From: Naegleria gruberi
Lineage: Eukaryota
Direction: 5' to 3' (one strand)
Length of the DNA stretch: 64,000 bases
Assembly (NCBI GenBank): GCA_000004985.1
Contig: GG738918.1
Shown here piece by piece: positions 5,812 through 64,000 of the stretch (positions are counted from its first letter, which is position 1; every line of letters begins with the position of its first letter). The translations under genes and the position numbers were made by a program. The notes below the pieces were generated by a model. It was not told the origin of the DNA. It saw only the letters and a list, made by a program, of their open reading frames with translations, and made no database searches.

Positions 5812-5979
5812 TATTATATTAATTTAACTTATTGTGTTTTTTATCTAAAAAAGGGTGGACAAAATGCACCATTGACCGTTGATGTTGGTGTTTCAGGAAT
5901 TGTTAAAATTCTTGATAACTTTAAGGATGAACAAAATGGTACTTTCATTCAACATGATGGAACTCCATTGAATTGGTAA
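5812..5979 (+). other. Orphan exon-like ORF without ATG (..GGQNAPLTVDVGVSGIVKILDNFKDEQNGTFIQHDGTPLNW), flanked by donor/acceptor-like sites
   Basis: Open frame from the stop at 5809 to TAA at 5977. A GTAAT donor sits right at its end and a GTACGT donor plus poly-A/AG acceptor lie upstream. I could not assemble a consistent multi-exon model or assign a family. Confidence 0.25.
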
Positions 5980-6274
5980 TTGATTTTATAAAGTAATCTC
6001 TTTGATTTATCAAATTTTCAATTTTTTAGGATAGGCAGTTATTGAATTAGTTTGGATTGTTGACTATAATTAAAGAGAAAGGTTTATGCAACCAACACAG
6101 AAACAAAGCATTAGGTGGTGACGATTTTCTCAGTGCATTTCAAATATTTATAGCAAGAAGCAACACTTTTTTTAGGTAGCTCAGATAAATGCAAAAAACA
6201 ACTATGGAAATTATGAATACCGATGTATGGTATATTTCATATTAGTCTGATCTTGATCAGTGTGATGGAATGGT

Positions 6275-7939: not shown

Positions 7940-8037
7940 TTTTTTATTAAGGAAACACCATGTTGCTGCAGTTTGTAGCGTTCTAGATAGTTAACGCAGC
8001 GAATAATATTGATAAACATAAAGTTAAGAAAGTGAAT

Positions 8038-8155
8038 GGCTACGGCCATATCACGATGAATGCACCTCATCCCGTCCGATTTGAGAAGTTAAGCATCGTA
8101 GAGCCACATCAGTACTGAGGTTGGAGACAACTTGGGAACCTGTGGTGCTGTAGTC
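8038..8155 (+). rRNA. 5S ribosomal RNA
   Basis: GGCTACGGCCATATCACGATGAATGCACCTCATCCCGTCCGATTTGAGAAGTTAAGCATCGTAGAGCC...GGGAACCTGTGGTGCTGTAGTC matches the canonical eukaryotic 5S consensus, including GCCATACCAC, CCCGTCCGATCTG, AAGTTAAGC, and the end CTGTAG. It is followed directly by TTTTT. Confidence 0.85.
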
Positions 8156-8160
8156 TTTTT
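8156..8160 (+). terminator. Pol III oligo-T terminator of the 5S gene
   Basis: A T5 run immediately follows the 5S 3' end. Confidence 0.6.
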
Positions 8161-8220
8161 ATGATTATTTATTGAATTCAAATTACAATTCAAAAATGTT
8201 GAAATATAATTATTTCATTG

Positions 8221-8859
8221 TTAATGTTGTCCTGAAACAGCTTTCCATGAAGGTCTTGATGAAATCTTTTCCCACCAAGCTTTAACATGTGGACGATCCA
8301 ATAACAAATTACCCAATCCAATGGCAAACAACAAGTTTCCGTATGGCAAATGATACAAATCGGCTAAGGTAAATTGATTTCCACCAATGAATTCTTGTTT
8401 GGCCAATACTCTTTCATAGGCATCCAAATTGAGAGACAACTTTTCACTCAATTGCTTGACACGAGCTTCGTCGGCAGCTCCATATCCCATCATTCCCTTA
8501 AATAACTTTTCAAAGACTAAACCAGATGCGTTAGAATCAAAGTAAGCAGTTTCAATGGAAGCTCCTTGTTCAAATAAACCCAAAGCTTTGAGCTCAGTTG
8601 GAATAAGTTCAGTTCCTTTACTCTTGTGTTTGGCTTCCAAATAACGACAGATGGCTCGTGATTCATAAATCAAGAAACCATCATCTTCCAAGACTGGAAT
8701 GACACCAAATGGGTGCTTTTCCAAGTAGGATGGTGATTTATGTTCTCCCTTCATCAAATCAACTGGTACAAGTTCGAATTCTAAACCTTTCTCTTTAATT
8801 GTTGTCAAAACACGTTGAACACAAGTAGATTGAGCAGCACCATAAATTTTGTAGACCAT
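8221..8859 (-). CDS. Glutathione S-transferase
   Basis: 212 aa protein. N-terminal thioredoxin-like GST fold MVYKIYGAAQSTCVQRVL...HPFGVIPVLEDDGFLIYESRAICRYL, followed by a C-terminal helical domain. Confidence 0.85.
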   Translation of the reverse strand: MVYKIYGAAQSTCVQRVLTTIKEKGLEFELVPVDLMKGEHKSPSYLEKHPFGVIPVLEDDGFLIYESRAICRYLEAKHKSKGTELIPTELKALGLFEQGASIETAYFDSNASGLVFEKLFKGMMGYGAADEARVKQLSEKLSLNLDAYERVLAKQEFIGGNQFTLADLYHLPYGNLLFAIGLGNLLLDRPHVKAWWEKISSRPSWKAVSGQH

Positions 8860-9031
8860 TTTGTTGTAGTAATGTAAAGTTGTTTTTTTTGTGATTAGAA
8901 ATGCATGCTATTGAAATGCCATTTATGGTGGATTCTGTATCCGAAACCAAAGCGCTATCGTGAGCACTAATTTTAATGATCTTAGGAAATGTCGCAATAA
9001 ATGGTTTGCATTACATCCTCTTTGAAACAAC

Positions 9032-10423
9032 ATGTCTTTGAAATTGATCATGTATTCAATTATTATTGTAAACTGTTGTTTATTCAATTTCCACTGTTTG
9101 TTTGAAAAATTAACAAAAAAAAATGAGCAAACGAAGCAGACAATTTATAAATTAATTGATTCGGAGGAAATATTCACTCTCAATAATAACAGAACAGAAG
9201 AGAAAGCAAAAAAGAAAAAACTCCAAGAAATATTCTCCAATGATGTTCTTTCAGAAATTGTATCTTTTAATAATGATTTTAAATTCGGAGTGATGACTTG
9301 TGCATTGGTTTCAAAGCAATGGTTTTCTGTTGTGAAGGAACGATCGAAACTTTCACTGCTATGTAAAAGTATTAAGAAATTACAAGGTGAATTTTTGGAG
9401 AATATTGAAAATTTGCGATTGGAAAGAAATAATAGATTCTTTGATTGTCAAATAATTGGATTGATGAAAGGATTGACAGTTCTCAGTGCTGAAAATTGTA
9501 TTGGTACAGAAGGGGTCAAGCATATTTGTAAAATGAACAATTTAACAAAACTGAATATCGAGAGAAATGAAATTGGTGAAGAAGGAGCCAAGTACATTAG
9601 CAAAATGAAACAATTAACTGAGCTCAACGTTGGATGGAACGGTATTGGTAAAGAGGGGGTTGAATTTATCAGTGAATTGAAAAATTTGACCTTACTTGAA
9701 ATTGAAGCTTGTAGGATTTGTGACGAAGGGGCTAAATCTATAAGCGAATTGAAGCAATTGACCCATCTCAATATTTCTTACAATAATATTAGTAATTTAG
9801 GATCAAAATATTTAACTGAATTGAAACAACTGACAGTTCTTACTCTTTGTGACTGTAATATTAGTGAAGAAGGATGCAAATATATTTCTGAGTTGAACCA
9901 ATTAACTGACCTCGATATTAGTAACAATGATATTGGATGCAACGGAGTTGAATATATTAGTGGAATGAAACAATTACTTTTCCTGTATATTTATGGAACT
10001 AATATGTACCCTACTGAACTTCAAAAGATCAGTGAAATGAAACAAGTAACAAACCTTAATATTTCATGGAATTATGTTGGAGATGAAGGAGCTAAATATA
10101 TTAGTGATATGAAACAATTGACTAAACTTGAGGTTGTAAGAAGTGATATTTCTACAGAAGGGGCTAAGCACATTAGTGAATTGAAACAATTGACTGATCT
10201 TAACATTGGTGAGAACAATATTGGTGGTGAAGGAGCAATTGCCATTAGCAAAATGAATCAATTGCGTATTCTAGATATTAGTGATAATAACATTGGTGGA
10301 ATAGGCGCAGAACACGTAAGCCAAATGAAACAATTAACTCATCTTGATATTAGCCACAATTGTATTGGAAATTATGGAGCTAAACGAATCAATACAATGA
10401 AACTGGTATTTCTTAGCAAATAA
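9032..10423 (+). CDS. F-box-like + RNI-type leucine-rich-repeat protein (paralog family A)
   Basis: N-terminal F-box-like segment IFSNDVLSEIVSFNNDFKFGVMTCALVSKQWFSVVKE. It is followed by about 13 tandem 24-aa LRR units of the form xNxIGxEGAKxISEMKQLTxLxIxx. Confidence 0.7.
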   Translation: MSLKLIMYSIIIVNCCLFNFHCLFEKLTKKNEQTKQTIYKLIDSEEIFTLNNNRTEEKAKKKKLQEIFSNDVLSEIVSFNNDFKFGVMTCALVSKQWFSVVKERSKLSLLCKSIKKLQGEFLENIENLRLERNNRFFDCQIIGLMKGLTVLSAENCIGTEGVKHICKMNNLTKLNIERNEIGEEGAKYISKMKQLTELNVGWNGIGKEGVEFISELKNLTLLEIEACRICDEGAKSISELKQLTHLNISYNNISNLGSKYLTELKQLTVLTLCDCNISEEGCKYISELNQLTDLDISNNDIGCNGVEYISGMKQLLFLYIYGTNMYPTELQKISEMKQVTNLNISWNYVGDEGAKYISDMKQLTKLEVVRSDISTEGAKHISELKQLTDLNIGENNIGGEGAIAISKMNQLRILDISDNNIGGIGAEHVSQMKQLTHLDISHNCIGNYGAKRINTMKLVFLSK

Positions 10424-10816
10424 GGAGCTAACTAAAGATGAAGCCTGGTAAAAAGTCGCTCGCAAACCTTAAACAAATGAAAAAGTTACAATTATGGAAT
10501 GTGAGTTCAAGAAAATGGTTTAATTTGGAGAAGTAACACTTTGACCAAAATACACTATGGTGGGGAGAGTTCAATATGATTCTAGTAGTACGCATAGAGT
10601 TTAGTATTCTCTGATAAAAATGAAACGAAAATTGCAAGCATCAGGCTCAACAATTCACAATGCTGATAAATCAAAGAAGAAGAAGAAAAACCTCCAGAAG
10701 GGTGTCTATTTGGATCAGCAAGAACAAACTTTCGCAATTCTCAAACAATCATGAGTACAACCCCACTTCGGAAGAGGAAGAGGAAGAGGAATTTAATGTG
10801 GAAGAGATAGGAAGAG

Positions 10817-11077
10817 ATGATGCAGATTGGATATAACTTTAAAGATGGAGAGGATGAACAAGATTGTTTAAAAGCAATGGAATGTTTTATGAAGGTTGCT
10901 TTTAAAGATGATAGATCTATCATCATTGCCGAGGCACAATTTGAAATTGGATGTTTTTATGATCTTGGTTGGGGAGTTGAAAAGGATTATGTCAAATCAT
11001 TTGAATGGTATATAAAAGCTCAAACAACAATTCAACCAAGATCAGATTTAATAATCAAAATATTACCTTCAATTTGA
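10817..11077 (+). pseudogene. Isolated Sel1-repeat fragment
   Basis: The 86 aa ORF contains Sel1/TPR-like units (AQFEIGCFYDLGWGVEKDYVKSFEWYIKA). No attached kinase or other domain is present, so it is likely a gene remnant. Confidence 0.3.
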
Positions 11078-42711: not shown

Positions 42712-43194
42712 GATATTTTTTTTAATGTTGTTGTTATTAGTATCCAGTATTTACTAGTTTTCTAGTTTGGTGTGGAATAAAACAAGAAAAGACATGGTTC
42801 AATTATTGTTATTTGTTTAAATTTGAAATATATGTAACGGTTTTCTAAAGTGCCAAGAAATCACCTCGCTTATTAACCGTTTAAAAAAAAATTAATAAAA
42901 ATCTCAACAAAATTAATTACTTCCAGTTCATCATGAGTATTATTATTATTTCCAACTAATTTTAAGTTTAATATTATTTTTCAATTTTCATCATGTAACC
43001 CCACAAGAAGGATAACAACAATTCATGACCACCACCTCCAATTCCGGATGTTACCAACAAACATAGCACGATTACTATTTTACCTCATTCCGAAGATATA
43101 AAGTGTTGCTTGGATATTTATCAACACATCAATCGCACACAAGTTTTTGAAGATACACGATGTCAACAGGACGCTAAACAAATATCATCAAAAA

Positions 43195-46100
43195 ATGTTT
43201 GAAAGTGTTGTTGCCAAAGTATTGACAGCAACTCTTGGTGATTACATTGAAAATTTAGATAAACAATCATTGTCGGTTGGTGTGTGGAATGGTAAATTTA
43301 AACTGACAGATTTGATTGTTAAAAGATCGGCACTTGATTTGTTGGATTTACCTTTTTCTGTTGTGAATGGAACTGTTGGTTTGATTGAAGCTGATATACC
43401 ATGGAAGAGTATTTCAACTTCATCAATTAAAGTTCGATTGAGTGATATCATGTTGGTGGTTCAACCGAGGAGGTGTGAAAAAATTGATGAGACAAGTGAA
43501 AGGAAGAGACAACGAATGGTGAAACAGAGAAAGTTAACACAATATGAATTGAGAAGAAAATCAGAGAATGAAGTTTCGAATGCTGCAAGCCAAGCAACAA
43601 CAACAAATCAAACAGAAGAAACCAATGAAAAGAATGAAAAGAACGAAAAGAAACAAGAAGGATTTGTGTCAAGGTTGACTGAAACCATTATTAATAATCT
43701 TCAGATTGAGATTAATAATATTCACGTTAGATATGAAGATGATTCTGATGAAAGATTCAAAGTGGTTATGGGAGCAACACTTGAATCTCTTTCCATGTCA
43801 AGTTGTGATGTCAATTGGCAGGAATCTTTCTTGGCCACAACAGCAAAAACCTTTTTTAAAAAGCTTACATTGAGAAACTTATCAGTTTACATGAATAATA
43901 ATGAAACTGAATTGTTTTCATTGATGAAGAATGATTTGGATAATAGAAAATTCATTGAACACATGAGAAATATCATTGTGGAGAAGAAGAATTATAGGAG
44001 ATTTGTTTTGAGTCCAGTGAATGGAGAGTTATTGTTATGTATGCAGAAGGATGAAGCTTTGGATTTAGAAAGGCCAAGAATTAGTGCCGAGTTGAGGTTA
44101 GAATCGGTGAATGCAACACTGGACGAAAGGCAGTACAGAAATATTCAGTCAACTCTGGATTATATTACTCAGTTTATGGAAAAACCATTCGATAGACCAA
44201 TGTTTAATTCTCAAAACGAATGTCAACAATATTTATCTCAATCAACGGATGAGAAAGTTACCCAATTCAAAAATTACATGCTCATGTTCAAGAGGAGTAA
44301 GAAAGTGGCCTGGCTACAACCATTAACAAAAGATGAAGCTGAAAAATTATTGGAATTGGAAGATTTCATCCATGTTGATGACATTATGAAACTGAGAGAG
44401 GCAGCTTATCTTGAAATTCAAATTGAGGAACAAAAGTACAAACAAAAGAAGAAGGAATCAAGCTATTGGTCCAAGTGGTTCGGTTCAATTGATAAGACTA
44501 TTGAAGTTACCGAAGAGGATCGAGTGGAATTTTCCAAGCTATTTGGATTGGAAGAAGATAAGGGGCCATCTTTTATTCTTCCTCCACATTTTGTGAATTT
44601 TGCTCTTAAAGTTAAGATTAACACTATTGGAGTCAAGCTAAGGAATGCATCAACCAGAACTGCAGCACCTGATTCGGTTGCAGTATTTGAATTGACTCAA
44701 TTATTGGTCGATTTCAAGTTAAGAGTGGAGGGTTTTAATGTAGAGGTGAGTCTTGGAGGTGTATCCGGAGTTGACAATTTCTCTACAAGAAACGAACAGA
44801 GCATTTCAGAATATTACAACTTTGTCAAAACCAATTCTGTTGGAAATTTTGTCGAGTTTAAAATGGACTCTAATCCTATGAACGGAGTGGAGCAGATGGA
44901 TTGCAAGGTTGGCAATTTGAATGTGGTGTTGAATCTTTCTCTCATTCAAAAGATGTTGTCTATTTTCATTCTACCAAAATATTTACAAAGAAGTCAATTT
45001 ACAGCACCTTCATTACCAGATACTTTGAAAATTACAAAAAAGATACTCAATGCTGAGCTAGATAGTATTAGTGTAATCATTCCTGATACTCTTTCAGGTA
45101 AAGAATACTTTCAAGCTCATTTAGGACATTCTAAATTGACCAAAATTAATGAAAAGATTGATATTTCATTGACACCTATCAAATTGTTACACATTGGAGA
45201 AGCAGAGGATTTCACCATTATTCAGCCAACTGATTTCTCAATTTCTATGGTACAGACAATTGATCAAAATTTAATAGATGTCAAGTCCACTCCATTAATG
45301 GTTGATGTTAATCCTCAAGTGGTGACTCAATTGGTTCGGTTAGGAGATACTGTTTCTCATTTCACCAACAATCCATTCGGTTCTTCAAAGGAGAGTATTC
45401 TCATTGTAAATAATGTGCAAATGAAATTACCAAAACAAGAGGAACTTTCGTCAGCTCATATCCAATTACATGACGATGGTAGATTGTTAGTTTTCAAGGA
45501 AGAATCCAGTTTAGCTCCTTCACACAATATCTATTTCAACACTGTCCAATTCCATACGGAAACTAATAGTTTCAAAGTTGTGGATTTTGAATTTGTGCTT
45601 TCAAATGCAAAAACATTTGAAGAATGGAAGAAAAACTTGGAATCTCTATTGAACAAGAGCATTTCTAAAGCCCCACTTCCACCTGCCATAGAAACAATTG
45701 TAAATTTCAGTCTGGATAGTATCGTACTGAGAGCTCTGAATGATTCTTCATCGAGTGAAGTTGTTGCCATGGCACAAGCTAATGGGCTTCACACAAATGT
45801 ACTCGCGAGACCAAATGATAACCAGGTCAAGGTAACACTCCGAGAAATCACACTCCACGATGGAAATCAAAGAAAAATATTCTTCTCAGATCACAGTACG
45901 AATATTATTGAGATTAGTATTATTCTGTGCTCAAATAAGGAATCTGAATTTGCAAGCCAACATTCTTCTAAAATGTTCCTGAATATCAAGCTTTCAGATA
46001 TGAATTTGATTTTCAATACTGGAATTATCACAAAATTATTCCTATTTTCAAAGAAGATTAATTTTGAAAAGGAAAGTCCTATTGTAATGATTACAGAAGA

Positions 46101-49100
46101 TGATTCAGAGGATATTTTCAAACATGAAATGAAATTACAAGGAGAAATTTCTAAAATCCTTGTCGATTTGGAAAGAGAAGATAGTTCCAAGTTGGCCAAT
46201 TTCTCGCTTTCCAGTTTGAATGTAAATCTTTATATGGGAAAGAATAGTTTATCGTGTGAAGGAGATATTGGTACTGCCTATCTTTCACAACCTAATTCTA
46301 CATCTACTTATCCATATATTCTTTCTCCAAAATATTTGGGCGATCGCTCACTTATTAGATTTGCATACAGTCAAACAGATGATGAGCCAGTAATGAATAT
46401 AGAAAATTCAACCCGTGTTGTAAGAGGTTTCACCGAAAAGAAATCACTAAAGCTTGCAATGGCTTCAATTCAATTCATATTCATCAGCCAATTTATTGAG
46501 GACATTCAGAGTTATTTCCAAGATGGTCCACTATGGGAAGCTTTGGAAAATGGTGGAAAAATGATTAGTGACTATTCAAAAGAATTGATTTCTCAACAGG
46601 ATAAGAAATTGGAAATTATTTCTATGGACATTAAGGTGGAAGATCCAGTTGTTATTGCTCCAATACAAGACAATACTTTCACAGTTCACTTGGGAAATAT
46701 CAGATTAACCAATAAGGGAGACTGGGTTGAGAATGGAATTCCATGTGATAGCTATTCAATGATTTTCAATAGGATGAATTTACAAACTAAAATTAATGGA
46801 ATTGAAAAGACAGTGACTTCTCCATTCAATGTTGCTCTTGGATTGAAAAGAGTTCTCAAGAAGGATCACTTTCCAAGCATGTATTTGGATATTGAAATTG
46901 TACCAAAGGTTTTATTCACTTTGGAACATGCTCAGTATTTACTCTTGTTTCAACTTATTGATTCTTTCAATAAGAAACCAAGCGAAAGTAACGAAAAGAA
47001 ACAAGCAGAAGATTTGGAAAAGAAGGATAGTCTAACACTAATTGCTTTTATTAGAATCAAGTCCTTTGAGTTGGATGTAAAATCAGTAGCTGAGAATACT
47101 GATCTGGCCAAGTTGGAAGTTGAAGATTTCCAAATGAGATATTTCAAAGAACAATCTGGAGACAATATGCAATTCCTTGTCAAATCAATAATTGGAACTG
47201 ATCTAAGAGCTGAAAAGAATGAATATTTCACACAATTTATCACCACTCATTCCAAAACTACCAAGTGCTTGTCAGGTTCAATGATTACAAGAGGAAAGAA
47301 GAATGAAATTTCCCTCCAGATCAATAATCCAATTGTTACAATTATTCCTCAAGTATTTAAGGAGCTGCAAGAGTTCTTCTCCACAATGAAACTTGCTACA
47401 GAACCTCAAGAGGAAAAGAAACCAGAAAAGGAAATTAAGGAAGATGATTTAATGATATCTGTCAAATGTAACGATATTCGTGTAGCTCTTCCTGCCAATA
47501 ATTTCAATCAATTAGCATTCGTAATGAGATGCAAACAATTCTCAATGGAAGATATTCACAATTTCAATATTCATGATTTGGATCTTTCATTCCAAAAGAA
47601 TAGAAACAAATATGATGAGTACACCAACTATATTCTTCATCCAATTAGTTTGAATGTGAGCTATACGGATACTTTAATTATTCAGACAACTAGGGCAATT
47701 AATATTCGTATTTCAACAAGTATTATTCACCAAATTAGACAAGTTATGGACATGTTTACTTCTGAACTTTCCAAAATCAAAAAGACAACTGAAACCAAAT
47801 TGCCACCTTATCAAATTAACAACTTGCCTAATAATAAGGTAGATCTTTCGTATTTCGCTAACTTTTTTGCAAGTTTCAACCAAGAAACCAGATCTGAAAC
47901 CTTTAAATTTGAAGCATATCTAGTGTCAGGAATTTCCATTCTACTTGTCACTGATCGAAATGAAATTGACTTGCCAGCTCTACAACTCGATATTGAACAA
48001 GCGATCATTTCTGATTTCATTAGAATATCCAACATTCAACTATTGTGCTTCAATTTAAACTATGGAGTTTGGGAATCACTTGTGGAACCATTCACAGTTT
48101 CTGGATCTAGAAAAGGAAGCAATTACATTCTTGATATTCCAAAATGTTTATTGAATTTCAATAAGAATACATTCGAAATATTCAAATCTATAATGGAAAG
48201 TAAGGAAAGAAGTGTCATTACGAGAACTTTCTATCCAACAATTGTCAGAAACATGCATCCAACACCAATTACTATTAATGATCAATTACTGGAAGATGGT
48301 CAGGAATATATTGTGCAGGGAGAAGTTTCTTCTATTAGTTTCATTATTAATAATCAAACTTTCGTATTCTCCTTAAAGAAGAAACCAGGAACACATATTC
48401 TATCCTCTGAATGTTTACTCACTGTGGAAATTGTTGATGGAACAAGTTATTTTACCATTCATTCTTTGTATTCCATTGAGAATCAAACAGATGTCACCTT
48501 TGAAGTGTTGTACAATTCGAAACGATGTGGAAAACTTTCACCTAATCAAGTGAAATATCTTCCAAATGCTCCATTTGACAAGACCAATTTGAAAATTAGA
48601 CCATCCTATAGTGACGAGTACATGAGTCCAACATTCGAAGATCAAAATTCATCTCAATTCATCTTTATGAATAAGACTTCCAGTTTCTATTGTGAGTACG
48701 TGGAAGATATTGGACGAAACATGAAAAATTTCACAATTTCTCCACCTCTCAAACTAGAAAATAGAACTCCTATTGAATTGGACATGGAAATTAATGGAAA
48801 GAAATTTTCCTTACAAAAAGAATCCTCACTCTATTACTACTATGCCAATAAGGATTTCTCTGTGAACATTCTGACGAATAATCCTTCATTTAGTGATCAA
48901 TCATTCAGTGCCACAACCAGCAAAACCATGCAAATTTGTACGAATGGTAAAACTATTCCTCAAAAGCAAGAACCTAAAAAATCAAAATCATTTGCTGAGA
49001 TTGTCATTCGTGCACCTTTTTGGATTTTCAATGATTTGGAATTACCTATCAATATTAATGGAATTAATATTCTACCATTCAATTATACTACTATGAACAT

Positions 49101-51360
49101 CAATAATTTGACCATTTGTAGAGATGATAAAAACAAATTTACACCTAATTTGGATAAAATTCCACATGATACCATGGATTTGTGGAAATTAGGAGATAAA
49201 AGAATGGTTTACTATTTGAGAGAAACTGATGAGAGTAAATACATGTACCTCAGAGAAAGATATTACATTAGAAACAATACCAAATTTGATTTAAACATTA
49301 CTTTCGAGAAGAATTCATTCTCAGTCGCTGCAGGAAAGACACAACCTTATTCACATTACAATGATTCACTTCCTAAAATGAAAATCACTTTGGGAGAAGA
49401 GGAAAATATTGTGGAAACTAAATGTCAACAGGAATTGTCACTCAAATTTGGAAAATTCCTAAATGCCAAGCTTTTACTTAAGGAACAGGAAGGTTCAATG
49501 TTTGTGGTGATTAATGAAATACTATTGCCTGAATTTTACGTGGTCAACTCTACAGATTTGGAAATTGTAATTGATAAGGAAGGATTAGCTCCAAAAAATA
49601 TCAAACCCTATCTCAACATGCCCCAATCTGTTATAATTGACACCATTTCAGAGATTATCACCCTTAATAAGATTACAATGAATAAGGAAACAATGAAAAA
49701 GGTTGGAGATGAAGAAATTTATTACACACTCATTCCATATCAACAAGTAATCATTCTCCACATTCACAAAAAGAAAAAGACTGAGGAGAAGGATTATGAA
49801 CTGGCAGTAGATGTTACTTTCTATTCTATTGGAATTTCGATTATTGGTGAAAGTCAGGAATTGGCTTTTATTCATTTTGATCAATTATTTACTAAATTTG
49901 GAATGCTCAATACTCAATTTTGCGTTTATACTAAATTGCGTGGACTCCAAGTTGACGATCACAATGAACAAGAGGTCAACCCAGTTCAATTTGTGAATAT
50001 CAATTCTTCAGAGCAGAGTTTCATTGAATTTACAATAGAAAAGAATGGAAACTATTTTGAAACTGTTTCAGTAACTATCAGAGAAATGTTATTTAGCTCT
50101 AACAATATTTTCATTCAAAAGATGAGTGACGTATTCGCAAGTGCCATGAAACAAATGAAAGCAGTCCAAGAAACAAAACTAAATCAATTCTTGCAATATT
50201 TTGAAGTAGAGGAAAGTGAGAAAATGTTCTTTGGAAAGTTTGAACTCAATCCATTGAAAGTCGATGCTTCTTTCAAGGTGAAACCTTCCAATGATTTGAA
50301 ATACGATTTGGTTTATATTCTTTCCTCTTATGGAACTAAATTTACACACATTGAAAATGCCATAATTAGAATTTACGATTTCAAACTTCCTCAATCCTCA
50401 TTCGTTACCATGCAAGATGTTATGGAAAGAGTTGGAAAACACTACAAACGTCAAATCAAGTACAATTTATTGTCAATTATTGGATCGTTGAATACTTTTG
50501 GAAGTCCTATTCAATTATTTGGTGATTTGGCTTCAGGAGTTACTTCTCTATTTTATGAACCTGCAAATGCCATCACTGAAGGCCCACATATGTTCTTATT
50601 GGGTGTTGGTAAGGGATCTGTTGGATTTATTTCAAATTCTGTCAAGGGAGTAACTGGTTTCACATCAACAATTACAGGAACAGTTGGAAATACGCTTTCA
50701 ATCTTTACACTTGACAGAGATTTCGTCGAGAAGAGAGACAGGATTATGGAAAGGAAACCTGCCAATATTTTCCAAGGTATTGGACAAGGTATGCAAGTTC
50801 TCTTCACAGGACTCATTGATGGAGGTGTTGGAATTATTGCTCAACCAATTAAGGGAGCTAGAAAAGAGGGAGCTTTGGGATTGGCTAAAGGAGTTGTTCT
50901 TGGAATTGTTGGAATTCCTACAAAGCCAGTAGTTGGTATGATTGATTTTAGTATCAAGCAAATGCAAGGTATTCGAAACTTTAATCAATCATCACTTCAC
51001 AAAATTAGAGAAAATCCAAGAATGTTATTTAACGGAGTGATTAAACCATACAAGGAAAATATGGAATTGTTTTTGAGATTAATCCACAAATCCCAACAAT
51101 CAATAGAGTTTAATATTTTAATTCCTTTAGGAAAGACCTTGGCAATCACCAACAGACATTTGCTCATTCCACAATCAACCAACTCTAATGCACTTCAGGT
51201 TGTTGAATTGAATCAAGTGGAAGCTATTGAACAAGTAGATGATGATAATGTCAAGATTAGAGTGGCAAATCAAACAAGTTATTGTGTTTATTTGAATGTG
51301 GAGGCAGCTACTGTTCGTGCCTTGGTTGATAAGATGTTACGTGAGTTGAGTACTAATTAA
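43195..51360 (+). CDS. VPS13: VPS13-family lipid-transfer protein (chorein-N domain), ~2720 aa single ORF
   Basis: N-terminus MFESVVAKVLTATLGDYIENLDKQSLSVGVWNGKFKLTDLIVKRSALDLLDLPFSVVNGTVGLIEADIPWKS matches the VPS13 chorein-N consensus (MLESxVAxLLNRxLGxYVENLxxxQLxxGIWxGxVxLxNLxLKxxALxxLDLP...). The size and long beta-rich repeats fit VPS13. The true ATG is at 43195; the track start is a TTG. Confidence 0.75.
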   Translation: MFESVVAKVLTATLGDYIENLDKQSLSVGVWNGKFKLTDLIVKRSALDLLDLPFSVVNGTVGLIEADIPWKSISTSSIKVRLSDIMLVVQPRRCEKIDETSERKRQRMVKQRKLTQYELRRKSENEVSNAASQATTTNQTEETNEKNEKNEKKQEGFVSRLTETIINNLQIEINNIHVRYEDDSDERFKVVMGATLESLSMSSCDVNWQESFLATTAKTFFKKLTLRNLSVYMNNNETELFSLMKNDLDNRKFIEHMRNIIVEKKNYRRFVLSPVNGELLLCMQKDEALDLERPRISAELRLESVNATLDERQYRNIQSTLDYITQFMEKPFDRPMFNSQNECQQYLSQSTDEKVTQFKNYMLMFKRSKKVAWLQPLTKDEAEKLLELEDFIHVDDIMKLREAAYLEIQIEEQKYKQKKKESSYWSKWFGSIDKTIEVTEEDRVEFSKLFGLEEDKGPSFILPPHFVNFALKVKINTIGVKLRNASTRTAAPDSVAVFELTQLLVDFKLRVEGFNVEVSLGGVSGVDNFSTRNEQSISEYYNFVKTNSVGNFVEFKMDSNPMNGVEQMDCKVGNLNVVLNLSLIQKMLSIFILPKYLQRSQFTAPSLPDTLKITKKILNAELDSISVIIPDTLSGKEYFQAHLGHSKLTKINEKIDISLTPIKLLHIGEAEDFTIIQPTDFSISMVQTIDQNLIDVKSTPLMVDVNPQVVTQLVRLGDTVSHFTNNPFGSSKESILIVNNVQMKLPKQEELSSAHIQLHDDGRLLVFKEESSLAPSHNIYFNTVQFHTETNSFKVVDFEFVLSNAKTFEEWKKNLESLLNKSISKAPLPPAIETIVNFSLDSIVLRALNDSSSSEVVAMAQANGLHTNVLARPNDNQVKVTLREITLHDGNQRKIFFSDHSTNIIEISIILCSNKESEFASQHSSKMFLNIKLSDMNLIFNTGIITKLFLFSKKINFEKESPIVMITEDDSEDIFKHEMKLQGEISKILVDLEREDSSKLANFSLSSLNVNLYMGKNSLSCEGDIGTAYLSQPNSTSTYPYILSPKYLGDRSLIRFAYSQTDDEPVMNIENSTRVVRGFTEKKSLKLAMASIQFIFISQFIEDIQSYFQDGPLWEALENGGKMISDYSKELISQQDKKLEIISMDIKVEDPVVIAPIQDNTFTVHLGNIRLTNKGDWVENGIPCDSYSMIFNRMNLQTKINGIEKTVTSPFNVALGLKRVLKKDHFPSMYLDIEIVPKVLFTLEHAQYLLLFQLIDSFNKKPSESNEKKQAEDLEKKDSLTLIAFIRIKSFELDVKSVAENTDLAKLEVEDFQMRYFKEQSGDNMQFLVKSIIGTDLRAEKNEYFTQFITTHSKTTKCLSGSMITRGKKNEISLQINNPIVTIIPQVFKELQEFFSTMKLATEPQEEKKPEKEIKEDDLMISVKCNDIRVALPANNFNQLAFVMRCKQFSMEDIHNFNIHDLDLSFQKNRNKYDEYTNYILHPISLNVSYTDTLIIQTTRAINIRISTSIIHQIRQVMDMFTSELSKIKKTTETKLPPYQINNLPNNKVDLSYFANFFASFNQETRSETFKFEAYLVSGISILLVTDRNEIDLPALQLDIEQAIISDFIRISNIQLLCFNLNYGVWESLVEPFTVSGSRKGSNYILDIPKCLLNFNKNTFEIFKSIMESKERSVITRTFYPTIVRNMHPTPITINDQLLEDGQEYIVQGEVSSISFIINNQTFVFSLKKKPGTHILSSECLLTVEIVDGTSYFTIHSLYSIENQTDVTFEVLYNSKRCGKLSPNQVKYLPNAPFDKTNLKIRPSYSDEYMSPTFEDQNSSQFIFMNKTSSFYCEYVEDIGRNMKNFTISPPLKLENRTPIELDMEINGKKFSLQKESSLYYYYANKDFSVNILTNNPSFSDQSFSATTSKTMQICTNGKTIPQKQEPKKSKSFAEIVIRAPFWIFNDLELPININGINILPFNYTTMNINNLTICRDDKNKFTPNLDKIPHDTMDLWKLGDKRMVYYLRETDESKYMYLRERYYIRNNTKFDLNITFEKNSFSVAAGKTQPYSHYNDSLPKMKITLGEEENIVETKCQQELSLKFGKFLNAKLLLKEQEGSMFVVINEILLPEFYVVNSTDLEIVIDKEGLAPKNIKPYLNMPQSVIIDTISEIITLNKITMNKETMKKVGDEEIYYTLIPYQQVIILHIHKKKKTEEKDYELAVDVTFYSIGISIIGESQELAFIHFDQLFTKFGMLNTQFCVYTKLRGLQVDDHNEQEVNPVQFVNINSSEQSFIEFTIEKNGNYFETVSVTIREMLFSSNNIFIQKMSDVFASAMKQMKAVQETKLNQFLQYFEVEESEKMFFGKFELNPLKVDASFKVKPSNDLKYDLVYILSSYGTKFTHIENAIIRIYDFKLPQSSFVTMQDVMERVGKHYKRQIKYNLLSIIGSLNTFGSPIQLFGDLASGVTSLFYEPANAITEGPHMFLLGVGKGSVGFISNSVKGVTGFTSTITGTVGNTLSIFTLDRDFVEKRDRIMERKPANIFQGIGQGMQVLFTGLIDGGVGIIAQPIKGARKEGALGLAKGVVLGIVGIPTKPVVGMIDFSIKQMQGIRNFNQSSLHKIRENPRMLFNGVIKPYKENMELFLRLIHKSQQSIEFNILIPLGKTLAITNRHLLIPQSTNSNALQVVELNQVEAIEQVDDDNVKIRVANQTSYCVYLNVEAATVRALVDKMLRELSTN

Positions 51361-57280: not shown

Positions 57281-57873
57281 TTGAGAGTGAGTTTGAGTTT
57301 GGCGCTTTTCTAGCCGTAGATTTTCAGTCCTTTTTTTCAGGTTGAAAAAAGATAAAAATAGGTGAAAGCGGGAAGATTTTATTGGATTTTGCAGTGTCAA
57401 CTGTTTGGACTTGTTGGGGATGTGATAACACTTCTTAGAGAACTAATGGTGGCACACGAAGGAACTTGTTAGGAAACTGATTGAAATTATCAAGACGTGC
57501 AATTGTTATTTTCATTTTTATTTTGTCAAGTGTTCTTCTTGTCAATAGTTCATTCAAAAATTCATCATCATCATGAATTTATTAAATTATAATTACCAAT
57601 TCTCGGAGAACATTAAAACTGTAGATAATGAGCAAATAGAGTGAAAATGATTTTTATTAATATCTTTCAAAGAGATGATTCTATTTCACTCTTGAACATG
57701 ATGTGAATTTTAACTTTGAACATGTATCACCATATCTTCATCTTCATCTACCAACTCGTGAATTCATATTAAAAATAGATTTCAAAGATAATTTGCTTCA
57801 AAAATCTTCATCATGATTCGGAAACTATTATTAAACAATAAGAAAAAAACAATTAATAATACACAATAGTAAG

Positions 57874-57945
57874 ATGGAAGCCTCATACACTGTCAAGAGC
57901 ATTGTTGGTACCAGAATTACCTTGCAAATTTTGCAAAAGAAGTAA
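57874..57945 (+). CDS. Micro-ORF / orphan first exon with a ubiquitin-like beta-hairpin motif (MEASYTVKSIVGTRITLQILQKK*), copy 1
   Basis: ATG at 57874, TAA at 57943. The core YTVKSIVGTRITLQI resembles ubiquitin IFVKTLTGKTITLEV. A GTAAAT donor-like site overlaps the stop (AAG AA|GTAAAT). Confidence 0.3.
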   Translation: MEASYTVKSIVGTRITLQILQKK

Positions 57946-58435
57946 ATAGACACACAACTATCATTGATGAAATTTCGGCTTGGAAATATGGATATAACTA
58001 AACATTGTGAAAATGTTGGACTATTTCCACAACGCGTTCATCATCATCATAATCACCTACCTCTCCTGCTGCTGCTTTACTACACCAGGTGAGAAGAGAG
58101 AAACCTATTTCTACAACTACACTCAGTTTGCTATTGCTTTTGGAAAATGTTTTTAATAATGAGTGTGGTAATGTTGTTGAGAATCTTCTCTAGAATACAT
58201 TTGCTTGTAAATATAACAAAATAGTGCATCAATACAAACAACATTTATTTGTTGAATTATTAACCAGTTTTTTCTCTTGATAGAAATATCTTGTTGTGAA
58301 TTCACATGTGTGAAGAATCCTTGTTTGAAAAGTATTGGAATATTTTCAATTCTATATTCCAAAATATTCAATAATTGCTGTAAGGTAAATCGTGACCAAA
58401 TGAAAATTAAGTGATGTTAATTTAAATGTTTCATT

Positions 58436-59587
58436 TCACTTATCCTTCACAATTTCATTGTAACCTATATCAAGTGATGTTAACTGTTTCATTTCACTAA
58501 TGAATTTGACTCCTTCATCACCAATTTGATTTCCACCAATATAAAGTGATTTTAATTGTTTCATTTCACTTATGAATTTGGCTCCTTCAATACCAATTTG
58601 ATTGTTATAAATATTAAGTGATATTAATTGTTTCATTTCACTTATCAATTTGGCTCCTTCATCACCAATTTGATTTCCACCAATTTCAAGTGATGTTAAT
58701 TGTTTCATTTCACTTATTGGTATGACTCCTTCAACACCAATTTCATTTCCACTAATATCAAGTGATGTTAATTGTTTCATTTCATTTATAAATTTGGCTC
58801 CTTCATCACCAATTTGATTGTTATAAATACTAAGTGATTTTAATTGTTTCATTTCACTTATGAATCTGGCTCCTTCGGCGCCAATATGATTGTTATTAAT
58901 ACTAAGTAATGTTAAATGTTTCATTTCACTTATAGATTTGGCTCCTTTATCACCAATTCTATTGTTATTAAAATCAAGTGATGTTAATTGTTTCAGTTCA
59001 CTGATTGATTTTACTCCTTCATCACCAATTCCATTTCCACTAATATCAAGTGATGTTAAATGTTTCATTTCATTTATGAATTTGACTCCTACAACACCAA
59101 TTCGATTGTAACCTATATCAAGTGATGTTAATTGTTTCATTTCACTTATAAATTTGGCTCCTTCATCACCTATTCGATTTTCGCTAATATCAAGTGATTT
59201 TAATTGTTTCATTTCAGTTATGAATTTGACTTGTATAGAGTCAAGCAACCTTCTAGAAAATTTAAGATTAACAATACTATTCATAAATTGGCTTTTCATG
59301 CATAATTCAATCCTTGTTTCTGTAAATTTTTGTTTAAATTTAATAACAAGTTTTGAACGTTCCTTGATCACATTAAAGAATTGTTTTGAAATCAAGGAAC
59401 AATTATTCAAAATAAACCACGAATCATCAATCATGGAAATTATTTCAAAACAAACATCATCTGAAAATATTTCTTGTTCAAGCTTGACAACTTTTACTTT
59501 CCCTTCCATGTTAGTATTATTATTATTGATCATGAATAGCTCTTCCGAAATTAGTTGCTTTTCAAAATCTTGTCTTTGTTTACTCAT
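58436..59587 (-). CDS. F-box-like + RNI-type LRR protein (paralog family A)
   Basis: True ATG at 59587 (MSKQRQDFEKQLISEE...). The N-terminal block IFSDDVCFEIISMIDDSWFILNNCSLISKQFFNVIKERSKLVI matches the 36102 gene. About 12 tandem 24-aa LRRs of the form NQIGDEGAKFISEMKQLTSL. Confidence 0.7.
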   Translation of the reverse strand: MSKQRQDFEKQLISEELFMINNNNTNMEGKVKVVKLEQEIFSDDVCFEIISMIDDSWFILNNCSLISKQFFNVIKERSKLVIKFKQKFTETRIELCMKSQFMNSIVNLKFSRRLLDSIQVKFITEMKQLKSLDISENRIGDEGAKFISEMKQLTSLDIGYNRIGVVGVKFINEMKHLTSLDISGNGIGDEGVKSISELKQLTSLDFNNNRIGDKGAKSISEMKHLTLLSINNNHIGAEGARFISEMKQLKSLSIYNNQIGDEGAKFINEMKQLTSLDISGNEIGVEGVIPISEMKQLTSLEIGGNQIGDEGAKLISEMKQLISLNIYNNQIGIEGAKFISEMKQLKSLYIGGNQIGDEGVKFISEMKQLTSLDIGYNEIVKDK

Positions 59588-59681
59588 TTTTTTTGGCAAG
59601 GAGCATTACAATGAAAAAGAAGGAAGTAAATTGATTTAGAAGAGTTATTGAGAATATAAAGATGAGCTATAATAGTATGTA

Positions 59682-60298
59682 TTATTGACTCGATTTCTGA
59701 ACCAATAATGTTTGAATTTGAAGAGTTGTTTCAGATTTTGGAGGTGGAATTGGAAGTGGCTTTCCAACATTTGAATTTCGTCTTGCTTGTTCTATTCCTT
59801 TCGAATCATTATCTGTCTTATTGGCCTCTGCTGATGGATAATTATTTGGTTTTGTTGCATTGGAGAGCCTTCTTGCTGAAGGTGGATTTACAGATGGAGG
59901 AAGTGTCACGCTAGTTGACTGTTGATTACAAAGCTGTAAAATTCCAAGCTGAATTTGTTTCGTTTTCAATTCATCAATTCTGCTTATTAAAGAAAGGCAA
60001 GCTCCCTTCGGAATGCCAATCTCTAACCAATCTTCAATTTTAATATTGAGAATGGAACCTCCATCAAATCTGTGTTTAATAATTACTTTAAATATATTTA
60101 AATACTATTAATTCTAATTGAACAGATTTACTTACCATCAACAACTGATGATTTATCATAACCCGATTCAATAAGCCATTGTCTAAAATTATCAACTGTC
60201 CAATTCTTGAGGCTAATCGAATCAACTTCCATTACAAGATGAGTTGTCTTTACCTTACTCGAGAATATTTTCAAAGAAGGCACATTGAGAATTGGCAT
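59682..60298 (-). CDS. SAM (sterile alpha motif) domain protein, 2 exons (intron 60086..60135)
   Basis: Exon 1 is 60298..60136: MPILNVPSLKIFSSKVKTTHLVMEVDSISLKNWTVDNFRQWLIESGYDKSSVVD|GTAAGT. Exon 2 is 60085..59682: (V)IIKHRFDGGSILNIKIEDWLEIGIPKGACLSLISRIDELK..., then a Pro/Ser-rich tail. The W..V..WL...G / FDG..L..L...DL..LGI..G core is typical of SAM domains. Confidence 0.6.
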
Positions 60299-60440
60299 AT
60301 TTTGTTCTGTGATGATTATTATAATACTCTCATGTTGTTGCTGTTCTTTCTACGGAGGTTTGATGTAGGAGATGACTCGAAAATCTCTTTCAATTCATGT
60401 CATTCAGAAAGGCTTGTTATCATCACTTGATTATAAATTT

Positions 60441-60710
60441 TTATTGGATTCTCTCCTCGATGCTTTTTCGAAACTTGTGGAAGCGTTCCCAGGACATTGA
60501 CTCTCTAGAAACCTTTTCATAGAGTCTCTTGTTGCAATAGATTGTTACCTCATCATTGTGTTCATTCTGAACAAATACCAAACAATCTGCACAATGATGT
60601 TCATCCAATTTATAAGGAACAAAAACGTAGCAGTCGACGTGTCTTCTCAAAAGAATGGCCTTCAAAAATCGAATAGTAACTTGCTCCTCTCCCTTCTTTT
60701 GCTCCTCCAT
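60441..60710 (-). CDS. Small hypothetical protein (~89 aa)
   Basis: The ORF starts at the ATG at 60710 (MEEQKKGEEQVTIRFLKAILLRRHVDCYVFVPYKLDEHHCADCLVFVQNEHNDEVTIYCNKRLYEK...). No family recognised. Confidence 0.3.
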   Translation of the reverse strand: MEEQKKGEEQVTIRFLKAILLRRHVDCYVFVPYKLDEHHCADCLVFVQNEHNDEVTIYCNKRLYEKVSRESMSWERFHKFRKSIEERIQ

Positions 60711-60831
60711 TCTTCTTGCTTGTATTGTATCTAGCTTAATGATCAAAAAATTCCAAAAGGTTCTTACACAGATTGAGTTGAGTAATTTTTTTGTGCTTTA
60801 TTTGTGGCAAATTTTGGCGGCAAACTTTGTC

Positions 60832-61806
60832 TTAATTTGCTTGTTTGGTTGCCTCAATTACAATGGCAGTGCAAACATCGATCGAATTTCTTCCGTATTC
60901 TTTGGCGCCTAATTCCTTTTCATCGAGTCTTAATTTGTGAAAGACAACTTTGGAGAAACCTGCCAATTTGAGTGCCTTCTCATAACTTTGAGGTGAAAAG
61001 TATCGATTTTGAATCTTTACAATGAAATTCTCATTCTGATCGAATTCATTGAAATTCAAATCGATGGAAATTTCGAATTGATCACCATCGATGAGATAGT
61101 TTCGTTCCTTTGAATCTATCATGAAGTTACTTCTGTAAACTCCGAGTTTTTTCTGATCTTGATTGATTTGTGCTTGATTGAGGAAAGGATTCGAATTAAG
61201 GGTGAGGAAAGTTCCACCAGGTTTTAACATTCCAGAAATTGATTTGCACATTTTGCATAATTCTTCATAATCGGATGAGTAGTGGAGTAAGTGGCAAGCA
61301 GTTACGAAATCAAATACTGGACTTTCTTGTTTAGTTTCGTTCTTATTCGAATGTTTGTAATACAGTTTCTTCAATTGCTCATTTTCATTCAATTTAATAA
61401 CATCACCGACTATGAATTCGAGAGGAATTTTCTTTGAAAGAGAGTTTTCCACTTGCTCTTTCGAATTATTAGCCAACTGAATCATATCATTCGAAAGGTC
61501 CACACCAATCACTGATTTAATATGAGATTCGAATTGATTGTACAAAACCCAAGTATCATTTCCAGATCCACAACCCAAATTCAACACCATCAACTTTTCA
61601 GAGTTTCGGTTAGTTTCGTTTCTCTCCTTCTCCACAGTAAATATTCTTTCCCAATGATGAATCATATTTGGGTTGACAATATAGAGACGATGAGGGTGAT
61701 GTCTGTTCTTATCATACTTGTTGGAAATTGATTGGTAGAGTTGAAGTGCTTGCTCGCTCAGATTCATTTTCCTCAATCTTTGTTTTTTTTGAGATTTGTA
61801 TATCAT
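60832..61806 (-). CDS. Class I SAM-dependent methyltransferase
   Basis: Motif I is VLNLGCGSGNDTWVL, followed by an acidic post-I residue (VIGVDLS), and motif III/IV LKPGGTFL. 324 aa with an ATG at 61806. Confidence 0.75.
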   Translation of the reverse strand: MIYKSQKKQRLRKMNLSEQALQLYQSISNKYDKNRHHPHRLYIVNPNMIHHWERIFTVEKERNETNRNSEKLMVLNLGCGSGNDTWVLYNQFESHIKSVIGVDLSNDMIQLANNSKEQVENSLSKKIPLEFIVGDVIKLNENEQLKKLYYKHSNKNETKQESPVFDFVTACHLLHYSSDYEELCKMCKSISGMLKPGGTFLTLNSNPFLNQAQINQDQKKLGVYRSNFMIDSKERNYLIDGDQFEISIDLNFNEFDQNENFIVKIQNRYFSPQSYEKALKLAGFSKVVFHKLRLDEKELGAKEYGRNSIDVCTAIVIEATKQAN

Positions 61807-62411
61807 ATTCGATTGGAAACGAAACTAAACTGAATGTAAATTGAAAGTTGATGATTTCAACGTTTCGAAATGGTTCTTTGCAAATTGTGGCTCATTCTGA
61901 TAAACCAATTCAAGTCCAAAGCAAGTTAGACATTTAAAACATTTAAAAGCAGTTTGATTTCAGATTGCTAGAAACGCGCCATTTTTAAAAAAGAAACCGT
62001 TACACAATTAAAAATCTTCTTCACAAAAAAATTAAGTTAAAAAGCAAATCACTCCTTCGTGAATTGTAGTTAACTGGACCTTCATCAACATACTATACAA
62101 CGATGCATTGGCCAACAATTCCCTAAATTAAACCTTCTCTAAAGAGGCAAATGAGTAAAAACAATAATTTGACCAAATATTCGAAGTCATCACCATTAAC
62201 AACCAATGAACAAGTTGGGAGGCTTCTTTCACGCATCATCATCCAACATTCCATCATGATAGAGAAGAAGAGTTGAGGATTTGTGTGCTATTCTTATTGC
62301 CTCAAGTTGATAAAGACAGAAAACAATCAAAAGATTTCAAGTAAAACAAAAACAAAGAGAAGAACAATAAGAATTTCACCATTTAGTATACAACAGAACA
62401 TAATCAACAAT

Positions 62412-62486
62412 ATGGATACTACATTCTATACAGTCAAGAGCATTGTCGGCACACGTATTACTTTGCAAATTAATTTTAAAAGATAG
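62412..62486 (+). CDS. Micro-ORF with the same ubiquitin-like motif (MDTTFYTVKSIVGTRITLQINFKR*), copy 2
   Basis: The same 15-aa core as copy 1 is encoded with 7 synonymous codon differences and no nonsynonymous ones. Confidence 0.3.
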   Translation: MDTTFYTVKSIVGTRITLQINFKR

Positions 62487-62873
62487 GAAGAATTGTTGTT
62501 GATGATGATGAATTTGTTAATACATATATATGAGACTACATCAGACTACACCAATTCCTATTCTCTGATCAGCTTGCTTATATATTATAGGTAGCTACCT
62601 AGACCTTGTTCATGTATTTTGTAATTTAGAATGATTAATATTATTATTGTATAATAATTGTGTATTATAACCTCATCATCATAGTGAGAGTAAAAGAACA
62701 GAAAGAAGAATAATTATCATCAAACTGGAATGATCTCTTCCTACTTGTAGTGTATACAATAAACTCCACTTTATATGGAGTATTAATCCTCTCTAATTTA
62801 TTATCAATTTAGTCAATCCATTCTCCTCAATATAATCTTCTTCTTATAATATTCGAAAATTTAGAATTACAAT

Positions 62874-64000
62874 TTATTTTGATTGAACCAAAGCTTGTAA
62901 ATATCTTCTCTGGTGTTCCCTAATTGAATACTCTGTAATATCCTTAAAGACAGTCAACAAATTATTCTCATCAAAGGCATTCAACACTCTCACTAACATG
63001 GATGGTCCAGCATTCTCATCATTTGGATCGACACAACATTCTCCTGGATTGAGTAGTAATTGTCGAGTCTTTACACTTGAGGAATACTTATCAACAATGA
63101 ATTGAATGCAATCATCAATGTTCTGTCCATTCTTATCAGAAGGAAAGTCATCAAAGTGAGATGCAAATGATTGGTTGACTAGTTTTTGTTCCAAAACGTC
63201 TTTCTTATTGAAAAGTAGGACGAAAGGAAGTTTGGCAAATGAAGGATTATAGAGCAAGTTCATGAAAATATCGAAACTTTCTTTCCATCTTGGAGTTTCT
63301 CCATCTTCAAAACAATTCGTATCAAATTCTGATAAGGAAACAACAAATAGAATGACATCTGCTGAATTAAATTGGTGAATCCACTTTTTTCTTTCATGTC
63401 TGGATCCTCCCATGTCAATCATTGAGACAGTGACAGCATCTTCAACTCTGTACTTTAATTCTTGTACTCCAAGAGTCTTTTCTCTCAAAAGTAAGACATC
63501 TCTCAATGTTGGAACATAATCATCATTGAAAACTCTATCAAAATTGGTAAAAAAACTAATCAAGGTCAATCAGGAATTATTCAGTTACTGAGATTACTTA
63601 CTATTCTGCGTTATCGTAGACTCTAAATTCATTTCTTCTCTTAAATGACTCTTGAATTCCTTCATCATTCCATAACTTGACAAAAAACTCACAAAATTCC
63701 TTTGAAACTTTACAATTTCCACTCACAGTATACAAACTCTCAACTCCATCCATCTCACTAACTTTATCAGCAAAATCAAAAGCTTTTGCTTTCAATTCTT
63801 CTCCACCTCGAATATCAATTGCTAAATCTTCACTTCCCTCAATGACCCATCTCATATTATGGAGAACATTCTCTCTAATAACTTGAACGAAACCTTTCAA
63901 ATCATTCTCATTGTAAAATGTAGAAACGTCAATGTCAATGAGACTAGTTGATCTCTGAGCAGGTCCTTCACATAGATATTTCATTAGTTTAAAGAGAAGA
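62874..64000 (-). CDS. Divergent heterotrimeric G-protein alpha subunit, 3' part (gene runs off the window end); intron 63556..63601
   Basis: The upstream exon (through 63602) has the helical-domain block FVKLWNDEGIQESFKRRNEFRVYDNAE. Donor is TA|GTAAGT and acceptor GATTAG|T. The downstream exon (63555..62874) reads YFFTNFDRVFNDDYVPTLRDVLLLREKTLGVQELKYRVEDAVTVSMIDMGGSRHERKKWIHQFNSADVILFVVSLSEFD...LLFNKKDVLEQKL. This compares with the G-alpha blocks RVKTTGI, DVGGQRSERKKWIHCFE and FLNKKDLF. Confidence 0.75.

Follow-up and report, generated by a model that had tools for sequence, protein, structure and literature searches.

Two dispersed micro-ORFs of Naegleria gruberi encode an identical 15-residue core and are candidate stand-alone micropeptide genes

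Can an open reading frame (ORF) of about two dozen codons, found twice in unrelated surroundings, be a gene in its own right? This question is raised by a 64,000-nt stretch of the Naegleria gruberi genome (contig GG738918.1 of NCBI GenBank assembly GCA_000004985.1; hereafter the window, meaning the whole stretch that was analysed), in which two plus-strand ORFs, micro-ORF 1 and micro-ORF 2 (copy 1 and copy 2), lie 4.5 kb apart and share a core of 15 codons (Table 1). A preliminary description of the window had read the core as a product of purifying selection on the peptide, had likened it to the first beta-hairpin of ubiquitin and ubiquitin-like (UBL) domains, and had offered three origins: captured first exons of paralogous UBL-domain genes, parts of genes with long or atypical introns, or expressed micropeptides. 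Of these, expressed micropeptides fit our results best, with start, start context and stop all conserved, and the other two are disfavoured.

Both ORFs were found at the positions, and with the translations, first given for them, and the core peptide, YTVKSIVGTRITLQI, is identical in the two copies, without a single amino-acid change. The earlier count of seven differences holds as a number of codons. A small correction is that eight bases differ in these seven codons, since the AGA/CGT pair differs at both its first and its third position. Seven of the eight differences are at third positions and all eight are synonymous. The core has 10.8 synonymous sites, at which the proportion of differences (pS) is 0.74 and the Jukes-Cantor distance (dS) about 3, that is, saturated, and 34 non-synonymous sites, at which there is no change (dN 0). 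In a simulation, the probability that eight random substitutions leave the core peptide intact was about 5e-6. With no non-synonymous difference against eight synonymous ones, the core amino-acid sequence is under purifying selection, as had been proposed, and the statistical support is strong. The saturated synonymous sites, together with flanks that retain no usable similarity, show that the duplication is an old one and that the peptide is the target of selection. Coding on the antisense strand was considered and rejected: the antisense frame that has the same wobble positions contains an L/R change and, in copy 2, a stop directly after the core. Since that frame is not conserved as an ORF, the plus-strand frame is the coding frame.

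The two loci are homologous over about 57 nt only. When 1.2 kb around each copy was compared by BLASTN and in all six frames, no similarity beyond the ORF appeared, and alignments of the flanks scored against random intergenic DNA gave p values of about 0.01-0.05 upstream and about 0.3-0.7 downstream. Homology that is sharply confined to the ORF, amid flanks that cannot be aligned, points to long-term selection in place. No additional micro-ORF copy was found in the 64-kb window, where a degenerate pattern back-translated from 12 residues matched the two cores only, with 0 matches expected. The only other weak six-frame match, at 47173, was examined as a third copy and discarded as a chance match within a very long ORF of 2737 residues, and the sequence TGATGAA(A)TTT, which occurs about 20 nt past both stops, was discarded as a shared element, being nothing unusual for the window.

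The boundaries of the ORFs are conserved between the copies as well. The core is preceded by an in-frame ATG, at a distance of 4 codons in copy 1 and of 5 codons in copy 2 (chance about 0.007), and in both copies this ATG is followed by E or D and then by small amino acids. In both copies, too, the first stop comes exactly 4 codons past the core (chance about 0.02-0.035) and is preceded by KK or KR, a two-residue basic tail; both micropeptides are basic, with a net charge of about +3. In both start contexts, aagATGg in copy 1 and aatATGg in copy 2, positions -3 and -2 are A and position +4 is G; the two A residues are also typical of the 20 other start codons examined in the window. When codon log-likelihood was scored against intergenic trinucleotides and ranked among 293 intergenic ATG-initiated ORFs of 15-40 codons, copy 1 came within the top 2% and copy 2 within the top 12%. 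As is expected of a small ORF (sORF) gene, start, stop and frame are kept in all the homologues compared, namely the two paralogues and one orthologue of copy 2 in a related strain.

This strain, represented in the ENA metagenome ERZ929261, is a Naegleria about 95-97% identical to N. gruberi NEG-M, and one of its contigs (L002) spans positions 60092-62725 of the window. Micro-ORF 2 is identical in this strain, which differs from NEG-M by about 3% overall. Near-identity also extends over a block of 605 nt around copy 2, with only 2 substitutions. By comparison, the spacer next to it has 18 substitutions in 322 nt (about 5.6%) together with indels, the region left of the methyltransferase gene has 22 in 740 nt, and the methyltransferase coding sequence has 11 in 936 nt (1.2%), 6 of them synonymous. 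In this one pairwise comparison, therefore, the block of about 600 nt is more conserved than the neighbouring coding region. The block may mark a constrained transcription unit; alternatively, its history or its assembly may be mosaic. For copy 1, no orthologue was found in this strain; of the genes beside copy 1, EFC37469 had no relative at all and the approximate LRR gene models gave no match.

The window has a G+C content of 30-35%, long intron-poor ORFs and one 5S rRNA gene, and six of its proteins are identical to the annotated NEG-M proteins EFC37415, EFC37457, EFC37468, EFC37472, EFC37469 and EFC37424, which identifies the strain as NEG-M. Each micro-ORF is alone on the plus strand in a gap of about 1 kb that separates minus-strand genes: copy 1 lies between EFC37469 and an LRR gene, and copy 2 between the methyltransferase gene EFC37472 and a G-alpha gene. 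The genes flanking the first locus are unrelated to those flanking the second, and three minus-strand genes separate the two copies. No larger gene model covers the micro-ORFs; for copy 1, the run of accessions from EFC37469 through two minus-strand models to EFC37472 (UniProt D2W0G0-D2W0G3) implies that no plus-strand model lies over it.

Nor do the sequences downstream look like the continuation of a spliced gene. Four real introns seen in the window are short and begin with GTAAGT or GTATGT. In copy 2 there is no GT between the core and the stop, and no canonical GTAAGT or GTATGT donor for about 200 nt after it. In copy 1 a GTAAAT overlaps the stop, and splicing there would add nothing conserved. 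Reading through both stops leads into unrelated sequence, and between each copy and the convergent minus-strand gene, 390-490 nt further on, there is no plus-strand ORF of at least 60 codons. The six-frame comparison of both loci revealed nothing conserved downstream. The micro-ORFs may stand alone: there is no gene model, protein match, canonical donor or conserved neighbouring exon. Ahead of both copies lie small ORFs of weak similarity, considered below.

Searches for relatives were negative throughout. A word-index protein search with both peptides concatenated yielded four word-sharing candidates among 5.8e9 protein clusters, none at E <= 10; this collection includes the N. gruberi proteome, and we estimate that a perfect 15-residue match, worth about 30 bits, ought to have been retained. 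A two-sequence HMMER profile had no match among 1.84e9 representative proteins. No full-length parent gene was found in the protein collections, the N. gruberi proteome included, the rest of the genome not having been searched as DNA. The degenerate DNA pattern had no match in IMG/VR and none in the JGI metagenomes. Two JGI metagenome matches to a looser pattern were judged to be chance, one of them being bacterial IF-1, and so was a single match among GTDB genomes, in Nostoc, which calibrates false positives at roughly one per 600 Gb. A literature search for evidence of transcription or translation of the ORFs found nothing.

The likeness to ubiquitin did not hold up as homology. Neither peptide matched a Pfam family at E <= 10, PDB sequences gave no match at E <= 10, and BLASTP of the peptides against ubiquitin gave no alignment at E <= 100. 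By eye, the hydrophobic/polar alternation of the core fits the first hairpin of ubiquitin, a resemblance seen in the letters and not a tool result, and the beta1-beta2 hairpin of ubiquitin (PF00240) has in common with the hairpin predicted for the micropeptides two amphipathic strands, a turn glycine and an I-T-L motif in the second strand. Hairpins in which hydrophobic residues alternate occur in many beta proteins. The peptides have 23-24 residues compared with about 76 in ubiquitin, lacking the helix and strands 3-5. A complete beta-grasp fold takes about 70-80 residues (beta1-beta2, helix, beta3-beta5), and the ORFs stop at 23 and 24 codons. In its working the micropeptide would resemble no more than a lone hairpin, and it does not belong to the ubiquitin family.

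Table 1. Positions of the micro-ORFs, of associated elements and of other features in the 64,000-nt window
Feature	Position	Strand	Extent	Sequence or remark
Micro-ORF 1	57874..57945	+	23 codons + TAA	translation MEASYTVKSIVGTRITLQILQKK, then stop
Micro-ORF 2	62412..62486	+	24 codons + TAG	translation MDTTFYTVKSIVGTRITLQINFKR, then stop
Conserved core, copy 1	57886..57930	+	15 codons	YTVKSIVGTRITLQI
Conserved core, copy 2	62427..62471	+	15 codons	YTVKSIVGTRITLQI
Shared upstream 11-mer, copy 1	57834..57844	+	11 nt	AACAATAAGAA; 40 nt before the ATG
Shared upstream 11-mer, copy 2	62363..62373	+	11 nt	AACAATAAGAA; 49 nt before the ATG
Upstream small ORF near copy 1	57573..57644	+		MNLLNYNYQFSENIKTVDNEQIE, then stop; membership in unit uncertain
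Upstream small ORF near copy 2	62151..62276	+	41 codons	begins MSKNNNLTKYSKSSPLTTNEQVG; membership in unit uncertain
Strain-conserved block around copy 2	62090..62694		605 nt	NEG-M compared with the ERZ929261 strain
EFC37469	56339-57241	-		neighbour of copy 1
LRR gene	58436-59599	-		neighbour of copy 1
Methyltransferase gene EFC37472	60832-61767	-		neighbour of copy 2
G-alpha gene	from 62874	-		neighbour of copy 2
Weak C/D-box snoRNA match	57759-57819	-		near copy 1
Weak C/D-box snoRNA match	58009-58060	-		near copy 1
F-box-domain gene EFC37468	53165-54187	-		
F-box-domain gene EFC37424	55169-56197	+		
5S rRNA gene	8038-8156	+		Rfam, 106 bits
Presumed VPS13-like ORF	43147-51360	+	2737 codons	uninterrupted

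The reading that we favour, with modest confidence, is that the micro-ORFs are a pair of old, lineage-restricted, stand-alone small genes for a basic beta-hairpin micropeptide under strong purifying selection. Each would be transcribed from the plus strand of its intergenic gap of about 1 kb, and translation would start at the ATG of the micro-ORF and end at its stop, giving a peptide of 23 or 24 residues. The selected product would be the peptide, an amphipathic beta-hairpin (strand, SIVGT loop, strand) with a two-residue basic tail. It would act by pairing, through exposed strand edges or the hydrophobic face, with another protein or a surface, and would be neither enzyme nor domain. Transcription, translation, the hairpin fold and the mode of pairing are all predicted. 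For the fold, AlphaFold2 gives two strands joined by the SIVGT loop, with a mean pLDDT of 80 (93 over model residues 11-20). In a bolder form, which we think quite improbable, the peptides would be a lineage-specific family of autonomous hairpins that mimic the first UBL hairpin and add strands to partners in trans, made from compact, strongly constrained units of about 600 nt; they would then, for example, complete or block a beta-grasp or other open beta-sheet. The 11-mer that recurs shortly before both start codons may be a leader or promoter element on marginal evidence: it occurs twice in 64 kb with both strands counted, where 0.18 occurrences are expected, and it was chosen after the alignment had been seen.

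Several points weigh against stand-alone genes. The expression of the micro-ORFs is predicted from sequence alone, and the set in which selection could be compared consists of the two paralogues and the one strain orthologue. In the ERZ929261 strain the whole block of about 600 nt is conserved and the ORF is not singled out within it; the block also contains several upstream ATGs, which is awkward if it is the 5' leader of a simple mRNA. The AlphaFold2 model was computed from a two-row alignment that included six non-coding residues, the minimum input being 30 residues. The weak likeness of the upstream small ORFs at the two loci could mean that the micro-ORFs belong to a larger unit. Finally, N. 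lovaniensis has no micro-ORF copy in the syntenic spacer or in the 21-kb locus, which leaves deep conservation unproven. The order of genes from G-alpha to methyltransferase is shared between window positions 60832-64000 and positions 5915-10927 of the N. lovaniensis contig (L003), and the spacer between the two genes is 272 nt in N. lovaniensis compared with about 1100 nt in N. gruberi, that is, about 800 nt shorter. A second environmental relative (L004) likewise has no micro-ORF copy. Given that the copy is absent from both of these loci, the unit is either specific to the N. gruberi lineage or lost elsewhere, and the micropeptide family appears to be limited to that lineage.

As the main rival to a pair of stand-alone genes we place a somewhat larger unannotated unit, unlikely in our view, which would take in the upstream small ORF as well and in which the micro-ORF would be either the final coding exon or the second cistron. 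Such a unit would yield a protein of about 47-50 residues after splicing, or a transcript with two small ORFs. Both upstream ORFs start with ATG and lie 260-300 nt ahead of their micro-ORF, and that near copy 2 shares its frame with micro-ORF 2, from which one TGA separates it, and lies inside the strain-conserved block, which begins 61 nt ahead of it. They have a faint pattern in common (M, N at 5, [YF]S at 10-11, NEQ at 19-21 and [VI] at 22), with an N-anchored ungapped score of 22 (p about 0.001 per random intergenic ORF pair) and a DNA identity of 33/69, and a reading of the sequence allows in-frame joins at both loci. This similarity was, however, picked after the fact from about eight candidate pairs. 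The donors that the joins need, GTTGGG and GTGAAA, are unlike those of the four real introns, the candidate donors lie at different positions and in different phases in the two copies, and a candidate donor close to the TGA has been destroyed in the related strain. Moreover, a conserved ATG in good context requires no upstream exon. It is still less probable that the micro-ORFs are short, decayed copies whose sources elsewhere in the genome were a mobile element or two functional genes that had diverged, so that selection acted on the parents. Such parents could lie in the rest of the 41 Mb genome, outside the DNA-level search, and an insertion on the N. gruberi side would fit the shorter N. 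lovaniensis spacer. Against this, the search of a collection that holds the N. gruberi proteome and the scan of representative proteins both came back empty, and neutral decay would neither spare 15 codons from amino-acid change amid randomised flanks nor keep an ATG and a stop at matching positions. The loci have no terminal inverted or other terminal repeats and no target duplications, and there are no extra copies in the window; a transposon was rejected on these grounds.

The remaining explanations fare worse. First exons of UBL-domain genes, with the other exons beyond long or atypical introns, would account for the by-eye match to the ubiquitin hairpin and for the hairpin that AlphaFold2 predicts; we nevertheless regard them as very unlikely, because Pfam, PDB and ubiquitin BLASTP gave no match, the core is in no annotated protein, an in-frame stop follows it at the same distance in both copies with no donor before it in copy 2, and no conserved coding segment lies downstream, where the next genes are convergent on the other strand. 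Peptide-level conservation in a very short ORF is the hallmark of cis-acting regulatory ORFs, whether conserved-peptide upstream ORFs or arrest peptides acting on a downstream cistron, and the micro-ORFs have this property; the lack of any plus-strand main ORF of at least 60 codons before the convergent gene, and of anything conserved downstream between the loci, makes such a role just as improbable. Least credible of all is that the conserved 45-57 nt are an element at the RNA or DNA level (a small nucleolar RNA, snoRNA, or a binding site) or a coincidence. Two weak C/D-box snoRNA matches near copy 1 could be cited for it, but their 22-25 bits fall far short of the gathering thresholds (60-80), and the matches, which are on the opposite strand and do not overlap the core, are probably due to the ATGATGA-rich sequence there. 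No tRNA was found, and Rfam otherwise matched only the distant 5S rRNA gene. With seven of eight differences at one codon position and every one of them synonymous, the core does not vary as a structural or binding constraint would lead one to expect.

Stand-alone sORF genes for micropeptides are known from tarsal-less/polished rice in insects, sarcolipin and myoregulin in animals, and small unannotated ORFs in yeast. As in these, the Naegleria ORFs are far under the usual annotation cut-off, lie in no larger gene model, and are conserved at the peptide level with start and stop kept among homologues. They differ in that the Naegleria peptides have no sequence similarity to any of them and their expression is only predicted. 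Unlike the sarcolipin group, the Naegleria peptide has no hydrophobic transmembrane helix. Because three minus-strand genes separate the copies, they are not tandem ORFs on one transcript as in tarsal-less. Conserved-peptide upstream ORFs, such as that for the fungal arginine attenuator peptide and the plant CPuORFs, are also ORFs of about 20-25 codons conserved in amino acids and not in nucleotides, but no same-strand main ORF follows the Naegleria micro-ORFs. The kind of gene is known, and this micropeptide family is new and unannotated.

Some other features of the region may be recorded here. EFC37469 is an orphan, with no relative at E <= 1e-5 among the 5.8e9 protein clusters. The methyltransferase gene is present in two tandem copies in N. 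lovaniensis and in the second environmental relative, and in one copy next to G-alpha in N. gruberi. The F-box-domain genes EFC37468 and EFC37424 are paralogues arranged head to head, an inverted local duplication whose copies, judged through the contig of the related strain, are about 88% identical in DNA. The single 5S rRNA gene lies in a short gap between two protein-coding genes, and a 54-nt stretch of it is 93% identical to a N. lovaniensis locus (L003:20340-20393). The 2737-codon ORF we presume to be VPS13-like from our own reading of its sequence.

In summary, genome annotation has passed over the two micro-ORFs, and billions of predicted proteins include nothing related to them. In practice the yield is small, namely two additional gene models and one family to follow through the other Naegleria genomes. 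If the micro-ORFs are expressed, they would provide a defined peptide for synthesis and testing, and they would show that in protists functional ORFs of only about 24 codons can be brought to light by comparing paralogues within one genome. For heterolobosean amoebae, they would also count among the first conserved micropeptide genes on record.

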